From Candidatus Megaera endosymbiont of Nemacystus decipiens (GTDB lineage: Bacteria > Pseudomonadota > Alphaproteobacteria > Rickettsiales > Rickettsiaceae), in the NCBI GenBank assembly GCA_030036605.1, contig DAOTRE010000004.1, positions 146,123-210,122 on the forward strand: a stretch of DNA of 64,000 nt. Direction: 5' to 3'. Positions 40,993 to 49,270 of the stretch are shown piece after piece. The notes under the pieces were generated by a model that made no database searches, was not told the DNA's origin, and saw only the letters and a list, made by a program, of their open reading frames with translations. How positions within the stretch are numbered: the first letter of the stretch is position 1; every line of letters begins with the position of its first letter. The translations under genes and the position numbers were made by a program.

Positions 40993-41973
40993 ATGAAAAC
41001 GAAAGCGCTAATTCTTAGTATAGTACTATATATCTCCCTATGGTGCCTTAGCGCCCACTGTATCAAGAAAAATACAGTTCAGTTTGTTAATGAACTGAAC
41101 ACTGATAATATAAAGTTTTCATATGATCAGATAAGTGTTTCCGGTTTTCCATTTTTTTGGATAGTTAACATAGATACTCCCAAAGTTACTTCAATAAGTC
41201 ACAACGGTTTACACGAAGCGATATTTAATAAAATAAAAATTAAATATACTATCTATACCCTTGAGCTTTCAATAGATAATGAAATATTGTTTAGTAACTC
41301 CGAAAATTCCCAAGACTTAGAAAGTTACTCTCTTATTTGCGAAGGTATTAACGTTTTGAAGTTAAAGTTCGATAAGCCTATTTGGTTTTCTTCGTTTGAT
41401 AATTTCATGCAGGATATAATTTCAATCGAATTGGCTTTTTCGCCTGTGAGTGCTGTAGGGAATGAAAAGGAAATATTTAATATTTCTCATCTCAATTTCG
41501 ACGTTTTAAAGATAGAAGAAGAATTATTTAATCATTTTGCAATAAAATTTTCTACACACTATGTGCTAGAAGGACCTCGTTTAAGTAATCAAATTCTTTT
41601 AGATATAAATTATATGGCTCCAAAAAAGAAATTGATACAAATAGTTACGGAAGACCTAGATTATGAACATAAGTTTATTCTAAATAAGTTCAATTTTTGT
41701 CATGCTGAGGAAGATGCGGAAGTGGATTTTAAAGGTGTTTTAAACTTAAAAACAGGCGAAGATCCTGCAGGAAAATTTAAGGTAATGTTTAAAAATTATG
41801 ATAAATTGATACAAAGCTCTGTCCCTGATGATTTTTTCCTACCAAAAGAGTTTTTACAAAATTTTATTGAAGAGTCTGCTATAGCTAGTGGACAAAAAAT
41901 CGACAATAATTACATTGAGTTTGATATTTTTATATCAGATCAAAACTTTGATATAAAAAGACGTAATATCTGA
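40993..41973 (+). CDS. Hypothetical membrane-anchored protein, possibly DUF2125-like
   Basis: N-terminal hydrophobic anchor (LILSIVLYISLW) and an early SVSGFPF motif as recalled for DUF2125; the rest is not recognised. Confidence 0.55.
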   Translation: MKTKALILSIVLYISLWCLSAHCIKKNTVQFVNELNTDNIKFSYDQISVSGFPFFWIVNIDTPKVTSISHNGLHEAIFNKIKIKYTIYTLELSIDNEILFSNSENSQDLESYSLICEGINVLKLKFDKPIWFSSFDNFMQDIISIELAFSPVSAVGNEKEIFNISHLNFDVLKIEEELFNHFAIKFSTHYVLEGPRLSNQILLDINYMAPKKKLIQIVTEDLDYEHKFILNKFNFCHAEEDAEVDFKGVLNLKTGEDPAGKFKVMFKNYDKLIQSSVPDDFFLPKEFLQNFIEESAIASGQKIDNNYIEFDIFISDQNFDIKRRNI

Positions 41974-41984
41974 TTTATTATGTT

Positions 41985-44900
41985 TTACATTAAGCAACCA
42001 TTTTCAAGCCAAAGAATTTTAGTAATAACTTTTTTATTTGGGTAAATAGAAGAGCATATTAATCTATAGTTTTCAAGTTGCTTTAGATAGCTGACAGGGA
42101 TTTCAGAACGGTTTTTTGGTGGAGTTAGGTCTGATTTATAATCAATAATAATAATATTATCACCATCTTCGATCATAAGGTCAATACGGCCTAAATCTAT
42201 TCCATTGTTTTGATTTATTCTACCAACACTTGTTTCAACTAAGCAGCCAGAAGATAATAATTTGTTCAGCTGTTTATTGGATTGTATTGCACTAATGCTA
42301 TTTGCTATTCTTTGTTGATTCGACAAACATAATGTCTTAATGAGAGGATGGTAGCTCATTTTGCTTATGTCTTTGGCTAAAATTGAATCTTCTAGAATTT
42401 TATGGAAAATTATTCCATATTCCATAGGGTTTGTATTATTCATTGGAGTCAAATACTTATTTCCTAGACATTTTTTGTCTTTTTTTAGATTAGGAATTTT
42501 GTTTAAATCATGTTGAACATTGAAACATTCTAATTCTTTATCATTCATTTTTTCAATAGCCGTTCTTTTAATCTCGTTATGGATTTGGCCATAAGTGATT
42601 TTTTCATCTAGCTTTACATTATTTCTCATGTTATAGAGCGTATTTTTGACTAGCTGGTACCAACAATTTTCGGGAACGGACTTGCTCTCTTGATACCCGC
42701 AAACTATTAGCCGGTCTTCTGCCCTTGTCATACCGACATACAAGAGTCGTAAATATTCAGAATAGGAAGCTTTTTGTGCCTGAGACTTTATTTTCTTTAG
42801 ACAGTTATTAGTAATGTTGGAACTTGTACTGACAACAAAATCTCCTTTGTCAGACCAAAAGAATCTTTCTTTTAATTTTGGGAGTGTAGTCGTATCACAT
42901 AATATTACGATCGGAGCTTGAAGGCCTTTTGCTCCGTGCAGGGTCATTATGCGTACTTGATTGAGTTTTAAACTCTCTCGTTTAATTGATGCATAATTGT
43001 TATCGATCCAAAAAATAAAATTTTGTAGAGAGTCGTCTATATTTTTACAGTAACTACTGCAAGCATATAACAATTCGTTTATTGCATCATCACTTGCCGG
43101 CCCATTATATTCAGATAATGATTTTCTATAACCCATTATTTCTGTTATGTAGTAAAAAAAGTTTGCGGCATTAGTTATTTTATAGACTTTTTGGAAGTAA
43201 TTTAATTTATCATAAATATTGGCATAGTTATTTCTATTTTCTTCGATAAATTTCCATATTGAACTTGATAATCTTTTAGTTGCAATATCGTATAATTCCT
43301 CCTCATTTAATAATATTATAGGAGATTTTAGTAAACTTCCTAAATTTAGATCATCATATGGATTTAAAACAAAGCGTGCTACTGACAACAAGTCTTGTAC
43401 TGATATGTTTTCTTTTAATATAATGCGGTCTAGGCCAGATACGCTAACGTCATTTTGCTGTAGTGCTTTAATAACTTCATCAGTAAACTGATCGCGTTTG
43501 CGAAATAAAATCATTATATCATCATTCTTAATAGGCATGCCAGTTGAGGGAAGAGTTTTTTTGCTATCAATTAGCTCTTTTACATATTTTGCTATTTTAT
43601 TAGCTAATATTAGCTTGGCTGAAATACTCTTTTGCTGCCTATTTTCAACAGGCCAAAATTTCTCAATATCTTGATTCACAGTGGATAAAGGCCAAAGTTC
43701 AACTAGTCCAGTAGTATTATTACGATAGGCTTTGATTTCATGAAGCGGCATAGGAAATAGATTGCTATCAATATTTTGCTGATTTTTAAATAAAGCGTAT
43801 ACTACATCAAGTATTGCGCTGGTTGATCGGTATGAAGTATCTAGATTGACGTTATAAAAAGGTTTTTTGGCATGATACATTTTTTCAGCTAAATTAACAT
43901 TTGTTTGAGCAAAAATATTGACATCAGCGCCTTGAAAGCTAAATATTGATTGCTTTGCATCGCCCACAACAAATATAGTTCGATTACTTTCTGAGTCTTT
44001 TCCATCACCACAGTAAAATTCTTCAATTAGTGCATTGATGATTCCCCATTGATTTGGACTGGTGTCTTGTGCTTCGTCCACTAATAAATGATCAATCAAA
44101 CCATCAAGTTTGTATAATACCCACTGGCGTACCTGGCTATCACATAATAAATTTGATGTTTTATCTATTAGATCATCGTAATCTAGTAAAGCTTTACGTT
44201 TTTTAATTGAGTTATATTCTTCTGTTAATTCGTAGCTTAATACGGATATCAAAGTGGAAAAGCAGCTTATTTGTAATGATTTAAACTCTTGGTCTTTTTG
44301 ATAGAATTGCTCTTGTAAATTTTTCAATGCAATGTCCAAATTAGAGCCTTTTTTTGCTACAGCATTGCCTGTAATACGTTTTCTTATTTCTCCTGTATTT
44401 GTTAGAAATAATTTATATAAGTCCTGGATTTGAAAATTCTGGCCTAATGCTGCTCTTAAATCTAGATTAGACAAAAATTCTGAAAAATACACCTCACGTG
44501 GTGTTCGCAATTTCTTAATAGCCTCTATAGCATCGGAAATCTTATTCTCTTTATACGCTTTATTTTTTAAAATTTTAGATTTATTTTGAATTATTTCCTT
44601 AAATATTTCATCAATAATAAGTTGGTGGAAGTTTGTAGCCAAATATTCATTAATTATCTGTAATTCTGCCTTATTGTTAATGATATTTTGTACTTCAGAT
44701 AATATTATTTGTTCCTTAGTCTCATCTATTACTTGGAATCTAGGAGAAATATCTGCTTCTAGTGGAAATTGTTGTAAAGTTTTTTGGCAAAAAGAGTGAA
44801 TGGTTTGTATACTTATATTATTTTCTGAGCATAAATGTTGTTCGTATAAGTTTTTAGCAATTTTTATTTCTTTTTCAGTAGGGCTGCGGCCTTGTATATT

Positions 44901-45149
44901 ATTTATAGAAATTTCTAATTCTTCATGATTCATTTTAGACCAATGAAAAATCATATCGTTAATCCTTTCCTTCATTTCTGCTGCAGCTGCATTGGTAAAG
45001 GTAATGCATAATATTTTGTGTGGGACAGCTTTGCTTAATAAAAGACGAAGTACGCGATCAGTTAATATCTTAGTTTTCCCAGTGCCAGCGGAGGCAGATA
45101 CCCAGATAGAAGAAGTTGGGTCTGACGCTTGAATCTGTAATTTATTCAT
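41985..45149 (-). CDS. addA: Double-strand break repair helicase/nuclease AddA (UvrD family)
   Basis: WVSASAGTGKT, LVDEAQDTS, VGDAKQSIFSFQGAD, TLHGAKGLQ, RLLYVGMTRA; C-terminal nuclease motif GRIDL...IIDYKSD. Confidence 0.93.
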   Translation of the reverse strand: MNKLQIQASDPTSSIWVSASAGTGKTKILTDRVLRLLLSKAVPHKILCITFTNAAAAEMKERINDMIFHWSKMNHEELEISINNIQGRSPTEKEIKIAKNLYEQHLCSENNISIQTIHSFCQKTLQQFPLEADISPRFQVIDETKEQIILSEVQNIINNKAELQIINEYLATNFHQLIIDEIFKEIIQNKSKILKNKAYKENKISDAIEAIKKLRTPREVYFSEFLSNLDLRAALGQNFQIQDLYKLFLTNTGEIRKRITGNAVAKKGSNLDIALKNLQEQFYQKDQEFKSLQISCFSTLISVLSYELTEEYNSIKKRKALLDYDDLIDKTSNLLCDSQVRQWVLYKLDGLIDHLLVDEAQDTSPNQWGIINALIEEFYCGDGKDSESNRTIFVVGDAKQSIFSFQGADVNIFAQTNVNLAEKMYHAKKPFYNVNLDTSYRSTSAILDVVYALFKNQQNIDSNLFPMPLHEIKAYRNNTTGLVELWPLSTVNQDIEKFWPVENRQQKSISAKLILANKIAKYVKELIDSKKTLPSTGMPIKNDDIMILFRKRDQFTDEVIKALQQNDVSVSGLDRIILKENISVQDLLSVARFVLNPYDDLNLGSLLKSPIILLNEEELYDIATKRLSSSIWKFIEENRNNYANIYDKLNYFQKVYKITNAANFFYYITEIMGYRKSLSEYNGPASDDAINELLYACSSYCKNIDDSLQNFIFWIDNNYASIKRESLKLNQVRIMTLHGAKGLQAPIVILCDTTTLPKLKERFFWSDKGDFVVSTSSNITNNCLKKIKSQAQKASYSEYLRLLYVGMTRAEDRLIVCGYQESKSVPENCWYQLVKNTLYNMRNNVKLDEKITYGQIHNEIKRTAIEKMNDKELECFNVQHDLNKIPNLKKDKKCLGNKYLTPMNNTNPMEYGIIFHKILEDSILAKDISKMSYHPLIKTLCLSNQQRIANSISAIQSNKQLNKLLSSGCLVETSVGRINQNNGIDLGRIDLMIEDGDNIIIIDYKSDLTPPKNRSEIPVSYLKQLENYRLICSSIYPNKKVITKILWLENGCLM

Positions 45150-45221: not shown

Positions 45222-45305
45222 TTATCATAAATTTTCTTTTTATCTCAAATTTATTGTTAATTTAATGTAGCATGATAATAACATGGATAGAATTATTAGT
45301 TAAAT
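45222..45305 (+). repeat. Duplicated 84-bp leader/promoter region, copy 1 (copy 2 at 46701-46784)
   Basis: Both copies begin TTATCATAAATTTTCTTTTT, share TCTCAAATTTAT and TTAATGTAGCAT, end GTTAAAT immediately before ATGAATTC, and have equal length. Confidence 0.85.
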
Positions 45306-46691
45306 ATGAATTCGTATAGCATTACTTTAGAAGATGTAAATAAAACTAGCCTTACTAAGTTTTTAAAAGAATTGGATACAAATAATATTACAAAGTATCA
45401 AAAAGAAGGTAAATTAAACTTCAATGAAACAGATGCAAAAACTGATTTTACTGAAAATCTTGATAGAGGGACAATAATACACCTTAAAAATGGAGAAAGC
45501 TTAGATAGGATTGTTGATGAAGAAATCACTGAGAATATTGCAAAAGATAAGAATTTTAATGATAATCAAAGAGATGAGCTTTTAGAGGCATTATTGGAAA
45601 AAGTCGATATTTCTCTTAAAAAACATGGTATTTCAAAGGAGCAATCAGATTATATTAAGAGTTCAAGCCATGAAAATGCCGTTGCAAATGCATCGAAAAA
45701 TATTTTGAATGTAATAACCGTTTCTATGAGTTCCAGTGCAGAGTATAAATCAGCAATATTAAATAATAATGCACTTGCTCAGATTGAAATTAGAGACGGA
45801 GATTTGATATATAAGAGTGTAGGAAAAATATTATTTGATAAGGAATTTTCAAAGCGCAATATTACAACTTTAGAAAAGAATATCGTAGCCCATTCAACAA
45901 TTGACTCAAACGACTATATAATTACTAATGTGGAAATAAATTTAGGCAAAGTAGGAGATAAAAAATTTACACCCAAGTTAGAATGTAATTTTTGTGCAGA
46001 TGGAAAAGTTGGTAATCAGTTGCTTCACAATATAAAAAACAAAATAAATGAAGTCAATAAATACCAAAAGCTACAGAATGATGCATCAAAAGACCGTCAT
46101 AGGATTAAACAATACGAAAATCCTGACAAAAATAAAGTAAATGTAGAACATCAAAATAAAAAAAGTGCCATTATAAAAATTAATACTTCAGATCCAAATA
46201 TTATCAATAAAGAATATTCCAATACAATGGAAACTTTTATGGAAAAAAGTGGTAAAAACAAGCAACATGAAGATAAAATTACACAAGATATTGTAACCCT
46301 GCTTAATAATAAAAAAGATGATAATACTCTTTCATTTCTTAAAAAGATTCCTACAACAAAAAAAGTACTACCCCTTGCATTAGCGAATCATATTGACAGT
46401 GAATTAAACAATTCTAACCAGTGTGACTCTAAAACTGCAAATGAATTAATTAATAGAACGTCAACTGTACTAGCAAACATTACAGATAAACCAAAGGGAT
46501 ATGTAAAAATTTTGATGAAAGAAATAATATCTGAGCGTGCAAAAGAGGAGAATATTAATGTTCCTAAAAAGGGTTTCATAGAAAAAATCTCTGATACTAT
46601 CAAGTTACTTTACTATAGTGCGAAAGGAGAAAATAAGTCCCAAGATTTGGATAAGTTTCAAAATAAAAAAAGCCACACAAGAGGTAGATAA
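45306..46691 (+). CDS. Hypothetical protein, tandem paralog 1 (candidate secreted effector)
   Basis: 461-aa ORF clearly homologous to 46785..48044; K/N-rich; no signal peptide; basic C-tail KKSHTRGR. Confidence 0.85.
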   Translation: MNSYSITLEDVNKTSLTKFLKELDTNNITKYQKEGKLNFNETDAKTDFTENLDRGTIIHLKNGESLDRIVDEEITENIAKDKNFNDNQRDELLEALLEKVDISLKKHGISKEQSDYIKSSSHENAVANASKNILNVITVSMSSSAEYKSAILNNNALAQIEIRDGDLIYKSVGKILFDKEFSKRNITTLEKNIVAHSTIDSNDYIITNVEINLGKVGDKKFTPKLECNFCADGKVGNQLLHNIKNKINEVNKYQKLQNDASKDRHRIKQYENPDKNKVNVEHQNKKSAIIKINTSDPNIINKEYSNTMETFMEKSGKNKQHEDKITQDIVTLLNNKKDDNTLSFLKKIPTTKKVLPLALANHIDSELNNSNQCDSKTANELINRTSTVLANITDKPKGYVKILMKEIISERAKEENINVPKKGFIEKISDTIKLLYYSAKGENKSQDLDKFQNKKSHTRGR

Positions 46692-46700
46692 ATTTTTTTC

Positions 46701-46784
46701 TTATCATAAATTTTCTTTTTGTCTCAAATTTATCATCAAGTTAATGTAGCATAATAATATCATAAACAAAATTACTCGTTAAAT
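46701..46784 (+). repeat. Duplicated 84-bp leader/promoter region, copy 2
   Basis: Aligns without gaps to 45222-45305. Confidence 0.85.
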
Positions 46785-48044
46785 ATGAATTCACACAGTT
46801 TTACTTCAAAAGATATAGAAAACTCTCAGAACGTCCCAGATTATTTAAAAAATTTGGATACAAATAATATTGAGATGTATCAAAAAGAAGGTAAATTAAA
46901 CTTCGAGGAGACAGCTGCAAAAAAAGATTTTACCAAAGATCTTAATCGAGGAACAATAATACATCTTAAAAAGGAAGGAAAGTTAGATAGAATTATTGAT
47001 GAAGAAATTGCTGAGAATATTGCAAAAGATAACCAGTTTACTGATAATCAAAGAGATGAGTTGAAGAGTGCTCTACTAGATAAAGTTGAAGGATCTTTTA
47101 AGAATTATGGTATTTCAAAAGAGCAATCAGATTATATCAAAACTTCGACGCAGCAGGGGGCGGTTGGAGCTCTAGGTGGAGGTCTTTTTATAGGGTTAGT
47201 AGCATTGAAACCAGAAGGCTTGCCTACAGCTCAAGTAACTAACGGATCTGCTGCGCAAATTGAAATTAAGGGTGGGAATTTGATTTATAAAAGTATAGAC
47301 AAAGTATTATTTGATCACGATATAACACAAGGTAATTTTGGAGATTATGGAATTGCAACTTATTCGAAAGTGGATTCAAAAGATTACATAATTTCTACTG
47401 TAGAAATAAACTTAGGGAAAGTTGGAGATAAAAATTTTACTCCCAAATTAGAATGCCATTTTTGCGCAGAGGGTGAAACGGGGAATCTTTTACTAAACGA
47501 CATTAAACAAGTAAAATCTACAATAAATCCAAAAAATCCAGATCTTATAAAGCAAGATTATCTTGAAACCAGAGATTCTTTAATGGAAGAAAGTGGTAAA
47601 AATAAAGAGCATGATAAACTAATAAAAGAGGCTATTACAACAGCTCTAAAAGAAAATGACACTGATATTGCGTCACCTCTGAAAAATATTTCTACAACAG
47701 AAAAAATGTTACCTTCTGCATTAGCGGACCATATTGATAATGTTTTAAAATATGAACCTAAAAATAATTCCTATGCTGTGGATAAACTAATAAATGATAC
47801 ATCGAATGTAGTGTCAGAAATTAGTGGCAAGCCAAAAGGGTATGTAAAAATTTTGATGAAGGACGTAATATCTGAGCGTGCAAAAGAGAAGAATATTAAT
47901 GTACCGAAAGAAGGCTTCATAGAAAAAATATCTGATACTATCAAACTACTTTACTATAGCGCAAAAGGAGAAAATAAGTCACAAGATTTGGATAAGTTTC
48001 GTAAAACCCCAATTGTAAAAAAATCATCTTCTTTGGGAAGATAA
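46785..48044 (+). CDS. Hypothetical protein, tandem paralog 2 (candidate secreted effector)
   Basis: 419-aa ORF; shares YQKEGKLNF...RGTIIHLK, GISKEQSDYIK, VEINLGKVGDK-x-FTPKLEC-x-FC and a 57-aa C-terminal block with paralog 1; tail RKTPIVKKSSSLGR. Confidence 0.85.
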   Translation: MNSHSFTSKDIENSQNVPDYLKNLDTNNIEMYQKEGKLNFEETAAKKDFTKDLNRGTIIHLKKEGKLDRIIDEEIAENIAKDNQFTDNQRDELKSALLDKVEGSFKNYGISKEQSDYIKTSTQQGAVGALGGGLFIGLVALKPEGLPTAQVTNGSAAQIEIKGGNLIYKSIDKVLFDHDITQGNFGDYGIATYSKVDSKDYIISTVEINLGKVGDKNFTPKLECHFCAEGETGNLLLNDIKQVKSTINPKNPDLIKQDYLETRDSLMEESGKNKEHDKLIKEAITTALKENDTDIASPLKNISTTEKMLPSALADHIDNVLKYEPKNNSYAVDKLINDTSNVVSEISGKPKGYVKILMKDVISERAKEKNINVPKEGFIEKISDTIKLLYYSAKGENKSQDLDKFRKTPIVKKSSSLGR

Positions 48045-48049
48045 ACAAT

Positions 48050-49270
48050 CTATTTTATTCCAGCCACGATTTTTGTTTGAGGAGTAGAAAAAATTTTGCT
48101 AGCTACTTTTCGTAAATCTTCCGTAGAAGTTGCATGGATTGATGATATTACTTCTTCACTTGAATAGTATTTTTTTAGCAAAGAGAATGTTTTCCCAATT
48201 TCTTCTGACTTATATTCAGGTTTTTCATCAGCCATATAAATATTTGATTCAACCAAGGATTTTGCCCTGTCTAGTTCATTATCAGAAATAAATTCTTGCA
48301 ATTTTACTATCTCATTTTCTATATTAGCAACCAATTCTTTAGCTTTAGCGTGCTCACAAGATGCGCTAATTCCAAATATTCCGCTATCTCTGAATGAATT
48401 CTGCCAAGTGCCAACACTATAGGCCAAGCCTAATTCTTCTCTGATTTTTTGGAATAGGCGAGAAGACAAACCACCACCAAAAATAATTGATAAAATCTGA
48501 GCATGATAAAATTCTTGTACATCGGTGTAAGCAGGGGACTCAAAACCCATAATCACTGTAGTTTGTTCCAGTTTTTTTTCTATAAAATATTCTCCTCCGT
48601 TATAGTTTGCCAGGCCATAAGTTGTTTTTATTTGTGATTTTTTTAAAGAAGAAAATAGCTTTTCGATTATTTCTAGTGCTGTGTCATGGTTTATTTTGCC
48701 TGCAATAGATATGACTATGTTATCAGTGGAGTAGTGTTCGTTAATATAATTTTGAAAATCAGCCGTGTTAAAATTTTTGATAGTTTCATAAGTTCCAAGT
48801 ATTGATCTGCCGAGCGGTTGGCTAGGATAGGCAATTTCAAATAATTTTTCGCTAACTAAATCATCAGGGTTGTCTTGTACTTCAGCAATTTCTTGTACTA
48901 TTACGTCTAATTCTTTTTTGACTTCACTTGCCTCAAAAATAGAGTTTTGTAGTATATCAGATAGTATTTCAATGCTATTGTAGAAATGTTGGTGTAGTAC
49001 TTTCGAAAAATAGACGGTATTTTCTCTACTGGTATAGGCATTAAAATAACCACCAATTTCATCAAATTCCTTTGCAATTTGAAGCGCAGTACGTTTTTTT
49101 GTTCCCTTAAATGCCATATGCTCCAGAAAATGTGAGATGCCTTGGGTTTTGGCTGTTTCATACCTGCTTCCAACATTTACCACAATATTAATCGATACAG
49201 AATTAACATGTGGCATGTTGTATGTGACTAGATTTATGCCGTTTGATGTTATGCTATGGTTAAAGGTCAT
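48050..49270 (-). CDS. M16 family zinc peptidase (rickettsial MPP-like / pitrilysin family)
   Basis: VGSRYE...GISHFLEHMAFKGT (HxxEH), NAYTSRE, GGGLSSRLFQKIREELGLAYSV. Confidence 0.95.
   Translation of the reverse strand: MTFNHSITSNGINLVTYNMPHVNSVSINIVVNVGSRYETAKTQGISHFLEHMAFKGTKKRTALQIAKEFDEIGGYFNAYTSRENTVYFSKVLHQHFYNSIEILSDILQNSIFEASEVKKELDVIVQEIAEVQDNPDDLVSEKLFEIAYPSQPLGRSILGTYETIKNFNTADFQNYINEHYSTDNIVISIAGKINHDTALEIIEKLFSSLKKSQIKTTYGLANYNGGEYFIEKKLEQTTVIMGFESPAYTDVQEFYHAQILSIIFGGGLSSRLFQKIREELGLAYSVGTWQNSFRDSGIFGISASCEHAKAKELVANIENEIVKLQEFISDNELDRAKSLVESNIYMADEKPEYKSEEIGKTFSLLKKYYSSEEVISSIHATSTEDLRKVASKIFSTPQTKIVAGIK

Follow-up and report, generated by a model that had tools for sequence, protein, structure and literature searches.

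What are the two adjacent genes that lie between a helicase gene and a peptidase gene in an endosymbiont chromosome, and could their products be exported into a host cell? The question is raised by a stretch of 64,000 nucleotides (nt) from the Candidatus Megaera endosymbiont of Nemacystus decipiens (Rickettsiaceae; assembly GCA_030036605.1, contig DAOTRE010000004.1, positions 146,123 to 210,122), below called the window, whose numbering is used throughout. The products of the upstream and downstream open reading frames (ORFs) are named P0001 and P0002. A preliminary reading of the letters alone (the sequence-only reading) had taken them for orphan paralogs of an expanding family of effectors of a type IV secretion system (T4SS). 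The genes are real, functional and diverged tandem paralogs, and they belong to an unannotated family found only in Rickettsiaceae. Both proteins are candidate substrates of rvh, a T4SS of the VirB/VirD4 type, with a disordered basic C-terminal tail as the export signal; judging from sequence features, we put the probability of this reading at roughly one half.

P0001 and P0002 can be aligned from end to end with 51% identity (BLASTP, expectation value E 3e-146). The main gap corresponds to an insertion of 42 amino acids (aa) in P0001, whereas the 75 C-terminal residues and the tails are nearly identical. The N-terminus M-x-S-x-[ST]-F of both proteins agrees with the family pattern. Since leader 2 begins immediately past the stop codon of P0001 (Table), the repeated unit consists of a leader and a gene, arranged head to tail. 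Thus the full-length similarity of the two ORFs (461 and 419 aa) and the duplication of a complete unit, with ungapped 84-nt blocks before both ORFs, are as originally described, and so are the flanks, a UvrD/AddA-type helicase on one side and an M16 peptidase on the other. The leaders had been called the same; they do precede each gene, but they are similar rather than identical (71/84, so that 15% of sites differ). The further claim that the unit was inserted between addA and the M16 gene is not supported. Each of the 17 genus mates compared has a different gene in front of addA, in no case that for the M16 peptidase, and with synteny broken in this way the event cannot be polarised. Within the genus, this side of addA is thus a place where gene order breaks repeatedly. 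P0001 and P0002 are the only family members in the 1.27-Mb genome. The P0002 and M16 peptidase genes converge, and no terminator-like hairpin was found there.

Table. Features of the locus, predicted protein regions and the coupling-protein gene (window positions, except for the last line; regions of the proteins are taken from AlphaFold models)
Feature	Position	Strand	Residues	Remarks
addA-like UvrD-family helicase gene	41985-45149	-		divergent from leader 1; also adjoins the family gene in the TARA relative
Leader 1	45222-45305	+		84 nt directly 5' of P0001
P0001, upstream paralog	45306-46691	+	461 aa	frame intact
P0001 alpha/beta N-module	45306 to about 46040	+	about 1-233	predicted, AlphaFold
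P0001 disordered basic tail	46620-46688	+	439-461	predicted, AlphaFold
Leader 2	46701-46784	+		84 nt; begins 10 nt past the P0001 stop codon
P0002, downstream paralog	46785-48044	+	419 aa	frame intact
P0002 alpha/beta N-module	46785 to about 47504	+	about 1-240	predicted, AlphaFold2
P0002 all-helical C-domain		+	252-391	predicted, AlphaFold2
P0002 disordered basic tail	47961-48041	+	393-419	predicted, AlphaFold2
M16 peptidase gene	48050-49270	-		convergent with P0002; stop codons 5 nt apart
VirD4 gene (RvhD4)	C4:224476-225813 of the window's genome			

Divergence was estimated on codon alignments by the Nei-Gojobori method. Synonymous divergence (dS) between P0001 and P0002 is 0.85, with a ratio of nonsynonymous to synonymous divergence (dN/dS, omega) of 0.36. 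The closest relative comes from a scaffold of TARA Oceans, where its gene lies beside addA with the same leader; the protein shares 80% identity with P0002, and for this pair dS is 0.24 and dN/dS 0.42, the latter rising to about 1 over the first 115 codons, as compared with 0.34 and 0.15 for addA of the same two genomes. Omega is 0.11-0.19 in the best-conserved blocks of the ordered domains. Both copies are under purifying but relaxed selection. The TARA scaffold contains a single copy, of the P0002 type. In the maximum-likelihood tree this protein groups with P0002, leaving P0001 outside (support 100/98), and thus the duplication predates the split from the TARA genome. Together with the dS of about 0.85, this rules out a recent duplication or expansion.

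A word-indexed search of 5.8 billion proteins retrieved only the TARA relative. However, the genes are not orphans, since an HMMER profile search of 1.84 billion representatives of clusters at 50% identity yielded 38 matches with E <= 1e-3 (16 of them below 1e-30), of which about 36 are credible; at least two, P0032 and P0039, are leucine-rich-repeat false positives. All named members are from Rickettsiaceae, namely 'hypothetical protein' entries of Candidatus Tisiphia, of Rickettsia endosymbionts and of 'Rickettsiaceae bacterium' metagenome-assembled genomes. The profile matches 30 of 130 Rickettsiaceae genomes and 10 of 35 genera, so the sequence-only reading erred on this point: the family spans at least ten genera. 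It is present in 14 genomes of a Tisiphia-type genus (7/7 in a second draw) and in 5 of 27 genomes of the window's own genus. In the Rickettsia-type genus none of the 14 genomes drawn at the order level matched, and the family-level search gave one weak match (E 1.5e-6). Among 277 genomes from elsewhere in the order, outside Rickettsiaceae, none matched. One fragment was added by a scan of metagenomes, and a scan of viral contigs with one alignment based on a C-terminal motif gave no relative.

The genomic location of the family varies by lineage. In two genus mates the gene follows maeB, in two metagenomic contigs it precedes mraZ, and in Tisiphia it lies beside tsaB. At least three lineages have tandem pairs or arrays, and tandem duplication has taken place at least three times. 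The pair of genome G042 results from an independent duplication (support 100/99), and the Logan contig L025 contains two full copies and a diverged third one upstream. The word 'expanding' is therefore apt for the family, which duplicates in tandem repeatedly, but not for the window's genome with its one old duplication.

Two observations concern individual members of the family. In two metagenomic contigs, ORFs directly upstream of family genes and adjacent to an ankyrin-repeat gene (L024:9081-9986, 301 aa; L025:1770-2789, 339 aa) are themselves distant members (E 7e-12 and 7e-14), and thus these loci hold arrays of two to three copies. In the genus mate G011 the family N-terminus MKSHSF... 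occurs just upstream of the annotated start of a 408-aa homolog (L026/L005, about 2300-2350) and is separated from it by a stop codon or a change of frame. A frameshift, truncation of the gene at its N-terminal end or an error in sequencing may explain this.

P0001 and P0002 have no match above noise in Pfam, NCBIfam, PADLOC or PHROGs, and scanning 21 family members against Pfam also produced only noise. This agrees with the original remark that no domain is recognisable; neither the family libraries nor a Foldseek search of the Protein Data Bank (PDB) revealed homology to a known family. The AlphaFold2 model of P0002, built on an alignment of 16 sequences, has a mean predicted local distance difference test score (pLDDT) of 81.7 and a predicted template-modeling score (pTM) of 0.78; for P0001 the values are 73.9 and 0.70, and the architecture is the same. 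According to the models, a protein of this family consists of an alpha/beta N-module of roughly 240 aa, a helical C-domain of roughly 140 aa and a disordered basic tail of roughly 25 aa. The 42-aa insertion of P0001 is predicted to lengthen one helix before the helical C-domain, and the conserved N-terminus (residues 2-7) is modelled as a strand of the fold. The family shares a motif of roughly 30 aa, L..L...YGLS.EQ..YI...S.QG..GGG, whose Gly-rich part YGISKEQSDYIKTSTQQGAVGALGGG is kept in P0002 and lost in P0001.

The predicted fold has no significant match in the PDB (best Foldseek E 0.12, template-modeling score (TM) at most 0.23). Bet v 1-like entries of the SRPBCC/START helix-grip type were listed, yet with E 0.3-1.4 and TM 0.13-0.25, so that the superposition is not significant. 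When predicted viral structures were searched, the two models found one and the same set of uncharacterised proteins, 195-324 aa long and belonging to Klosneuvirinae and Mimiviridae, from Bodo saltans virus, Hokovirus, Terrestrivirus, Edafosvirus, Tupanvirus, Homavirus and Satyrvirus (E 2e-3 to 0.1, probability 0.6-1.0, target-normalised TM 0.17-0.46, identity 6-15%). These giant-virus ORFans are the best and the only consistent structural neighbors of both models, and their size matches that of the N-module. However, no score reaches the customary threshold (every TM is < 0.5, and there is no E <= 1e-3), and both models were built on one alignment; we take the likeness for no more than a lead.

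A profile search of PDB sequences pointed to transcription activator-like (TAL) effectors, with a full-sequence E of 8e-9. This value is an artefact, as it sums 15-17 insignificant repeat scores: taken singly, the repeats reach -1 to 3 bits, always against one motif (profile positions 68-111), and no stretch passes alone. Kinship with TAL effectors is thus rejected. The fragment L..L...YGISKEQSDYIKTSTQQGAVGALGGG of P0002 (about residues 101-135, positions 47085-47190) does resemble the junction of TAL-effector repeats (LLPVLCQAHGLTPEQVVAIASNGGG); there is only one such unit in P0002, not a tandem series of 33-35-aa repeats. A C-terminal motif reminiscent of CE-clan proteases, seen by eye in members P0025 and P0049, was also dropped, having no supporting Pfam match.

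The secretion machinery expected from the order is indeed present. The genome encodes an rvh-type T4SS whose signature is complete: VirD4, two VirB4, two VirB8, VirB10 and five tandem large VirB6-like genes. As far as hydropathy tells, the proteins lack a signal peptide, in agreement with the sequence-only reading: neither has an N-terminal hydrophobic stretch (the maximum over 12 residues is below 0). No clear transmembrane segment is seen either, the maximum Kyte-Doolittle mean over 19 residues being 1.49 in P0002 and 0.76 in P0001. Both proteins do end in basic tails finishing in GR (KKSHTRGR in P0001, RKTPIVKKSSSLGR in P0002), an ending shared by 6 of the 723 genome ORFs of at least 200 aa, and the tails are disordered in both models (pLDDT < 50).

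The character of the tail is common to the family. Over their last 20 residues, 37 members carry a mean net charge of +3.97, as compared with +0.24 (standard deviation 2.8) for the ORFs of the window's genome; an arginine occurs within the last three residues in 78% versus 15%, and as the terminal residue in 57% versus 6.4%. Since the members are related, these figures describe the family and do not amount to a test. The tail sequences are otherwise unalignable. What is conserved family-wide is the basic character, and the tail usually ends with a small residue followed by arginine.

Positively charged C-terminal signals are a feature of VirB/VirD4-dependent effectors of the Agrobacterium VirE2/VirF class. 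The window proteins are not homologous to such effectors in sequence and are only candidates; their tails do not match the Agrobacterium consensus R-x7-R-x-R-x-R. To our knowledge, no agreed consensus exists for rvh signals. The Anaplasma protein APH0215 ends in ...SIGRSRT, and its VirD4-dependent translocation requires the last 21 aa (PMC6414681). Like effectors of this kind, the window proteins have an Arg/Lys-rich C-terminal tail, which is predicted to be unstructured, no N-terminal signal and a VirD4 in the genome. On the reading preferred here, the coupling protein RvhD4 would recognise the tails of P0001 and P0002, and the folded domains would act inside the eukaryotic host cell. Genes of validated rickettsial effectors are reported to lie dispersed among housekeeping genes and at a distance from those of the T4SS, and prediction tools to miss them (PMC11258249, PMC11077975). 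The window genes have a similar setting, remote from the T4SS genes and surrounded by housekeeping genes, and tandem duplication, too, is as reported for rickettsial effectors.

The N-module also occurs in proteins of other composition. It corresponds to residues 1-270 of MCC8398114.1 (hhalign probability 99.3%, E 2.4e-20; profile E 1.6e-21), a protein of 775 aa with DUF5410 (PF17422) at residues 464-607 that a published BLAST table includes among the homologs of cREM-2, a group defined by Gillespie and co-workers (PMC11077975). A Tisiphia protein of 1030 aa also combines the N-module with DUF5410, and in another family member the N-module is followed by ankyrin repeats. Generally, in DUF5410 proteins of the cREM-2d type from Tisiphia and basal Rickettsia, the first roughly 270 residues are homologous to the window N-module, whereas DUF5410 replaces the helical C-domain and the basic tail. 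Both kinds of protein are restricted to Rickettsiaceae and have no signal peptide. The DUF5410 protein cREM-2a was reported to bind RvhD4, and SrfG, also with DUF5410, to be secreted by R. parkeri (PMC11258249, PMC11077975). The fusions to ankyrin repeats and to the DUF5410/cREM-2 domain thus lend circumstantial support to the idea that the window proteins may be effectors.

However, the family as such does not belong to DUF5410. PF17422 has no match in P0001 and P0002 even at E <= 1, nor in 21 members or in the whole genome, and hhalign against the canonical Rickettsia DUF5410 pair gives a probability of 0.1%, that is, no similarity; this rules out membership, and the link is one of a shared module. 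The cREM-2a/cREM-2b (SrfG) pair still resembles the window pair in other respects: its genes are also tandem, encode fast-diverging hypothetical proteins and lie among housekeeping genes, and the cREM-2a position protein has a basic tail with a near-terminal arginine. The differences are the shorter length (about 330 and 390 aa), the absence of the N-module and the lack of detectable sequence similarity. In the canonical Rickettsia pairs (L085-L088) the upstream gene, at the SrfG/cREM-2b position, ends in an acidic tail and the downstream gene, at the cREM-2a position, in a basic one; one homolog of the latter ends in GRGR, like P0001.

Secretion, recognition by RvhD4 and action in the host are inferences, as is the promoter function of the leaders considered below. 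The main rival explanation is that the family is a lineage-specific protein staying inside the bacterium, be it structural, regulatory, nucleic-acid-binding or membrane-associated, with a tail that serves for binding rather than export. It is favored among the alternatives because Tisiphia keeps a conserved single copy: nearly all of the 14 Tisiphia-type genomes have one copy of about 445 aa, which would also fit a lineage-specific housekeeping role. The purifying selection on the ordered domains fits this role as well, and the Gly-rich, mildly hydrophobic motif of P0002 (residues 125-143, Kyte-Doolittle mean 1.49) could touch a membrane. No eukaryote-like or host-targeting domain was found in the window proteins by the Pfam and NCBIfam scans, and the charge of their tails is not exceptional, falling only in the top 4-20% of the 723 ORFs in this AT-rich genome with its Lys-rich proteome. 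Further points that, like the preceding ones, weigh against export are the kinship of the 37 members, which makes the tail statistics overstate independence, the hhalign result for the canonical DUF5410 pair, and the nature of the fusion argument, which is guilt by association. On the other hand, the family is patchy in the window's own genus and nearly missing from Rickettsia-type genomes; it changes genomic location between lineages, duplicates recurrently in tandem and evolves fast, and some relatives join its N-module to ankyrin repeats or the cREM-2 domain. Such patchiness, variable location, duplication, fast evolution and fusion would be unusual for a core cytoplasmic function, and we consider it doubtful, although worth keeping in mind, that the proteins remain in the bacterium.

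Export could also proceed by another route, through a type I system (TolC/AprDE), lysis or vesicles instead of rvh. Indeed, type I substrates also have uncleaved C-terminal signals, Rickettsiaceae carry a type I secretion system (PMC11258249), and the missing N-terminal signal peptide is in keeping with this route. However, the tails are basic and polar, have no Gly-rich repeats of the RTX (repeats-in-toxin) type and resemble VirD4-dependent tails, which makes this route improbable. Finally, P0001 might be a decaying duplicate on its way to a pseudogene, the similarity of its leader being merely residual. The loss of the Gly-rich motif, the 42-aa insertion, an omega of 0.69 in the block at alignment columns 115-195, the lower model confidence and the P0002-type single copy of the TARA relative could all be seen in this light. 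Yet the frame of P0001 has stayed intact over a dS of about 0.85, and omega is 0.36 overall and 0.11-0.16 in conserved blocks; the predicted architecture is that of P0002, the tail and the 75 C-terminal residues are nearly the same, and the branch lengths of the two copies since the duplication are similar (0.43 versus about 0.35). Decay of P0001 is thus highly improbable.

The export of both proteins by rvh can also be extended to a bolder scheme, which we regard as rather unlikely. The family would then have a fold of a new type and form a class of rvh substrates of its own. Its conserved tail, disordered, basic and ending in a small residue followed by Arg-x0-2, would be a generic RvhD4 signal of Rickettsiaceae, shared with cREM-2a and similar to the tail of Anaplasma APH0215. 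The N-module would be a portable host-targeting domain, exchanged among effectors with a helical domain, DUF5410 or ankyrin repeats, and its fold would be akin to that of ORFans from giant viruses whose hosts are the same protists.

A candidate T4SS effector family is a familiar kind of object, but the stand-alone form of this one is unannotated: it is not described in the literature searched and has no Pfam or NCBIfam model. Rickettsiaceae effectors are hard to predict, and the validated ones are reported to be 'hypothetical proteins' missed in silico (PMC11258249, PMC11077975). The present family adds an unmodelled group that occurs in Tisiphia and in many environmental Rickettsiaceae. Its tail, conserved across highly diverged members, is a concrete candidate for an rvh secretion signal, and the N-module common to cREM-2d-type proteins may mark the shuffling of effector modules before the Rickettsia pathogens arose. 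If the proteins are not secreted, they still form an uncharacterised family whose predicted fold has no match in the PDB.

The leaders have diverged far less than the genes, whose raw proportion of synonymous differences (pS) is 0.40-0.51 (binomial P <= 1.6e-6). The best-conserved part is a 36-nt core (45222-45257 in leader 1 and 46701-46736 in leader 2; 33/36 identical), which is almost unchanged in the leader of the TARA relative. It contains an inverted repeat of 8 bp, ATAAATTT-N12-AAATTTAT (45227-45254), present also in leader 2 (46706-46733) and unique to these two sites. A putative promoter can be read from the sequence of leader 1, with the -35 box TTATTG (45251-45256), a 17-nt spacer and the -10 box GATAAT (45274-45279), and leader 2 has the promoter-like arrangement TTATCA-17-AATAAT (46730-46758). 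The duplicated unit presumably took along the promoter region of the gene, so that each copy is probably transcribed from its own leader, with the conserved core as a candidate upstream regulator site or UP element. The leaders are either constrained or homogenised by gene conversion; the latter is a possibility since dS is lower at the 5' end of the genes (0.56) than in the middle (0.95-1.4).

The leader sequence is found at only two places in the 1.27-Mb assembly, and thus it is not a dispersed element. As it was also not found upstream of family genes in other lineages, a mobile element can be ruled out. In the TARA relative the 5' part of the leader resembles leader 1, and the 3' part is identical to leader 2. 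The single TARA copy fits a loss of the P0001 copy, which may have occurred by recombination between the leaders. An alternative explanation of the leader pattern is that the P0001 side diverged faster.

The TARA ortholog stops after residue 355 (...KPKGYVKIL; L009:5395-5484) and is followed by sequence encoding, in another frame, an Ffh/SRP54-like peptide. This is either a real truncating rearrangement or the sign of a chimeric metagenome contig.

The surroundings of addA provide two minor observations. In the window, the ORF of 326 aa that separates an Hsp70-family gene from addA (40993-41973, +) gave no match to Pfam at E <= 1e-5. On the TARA scaffold, the region between addA and the leader contains an insertion of roughly 285 bp that is absent from the window (L009:3958-4245). 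BLAST finds 24 fragments of this insertion in the window's genome, one of them at C1:189637-189810 (94% identity), so it is a dispersed repeat; with its GC-rich palindromic arms it has the look of a small mobile element of the palindromic type.

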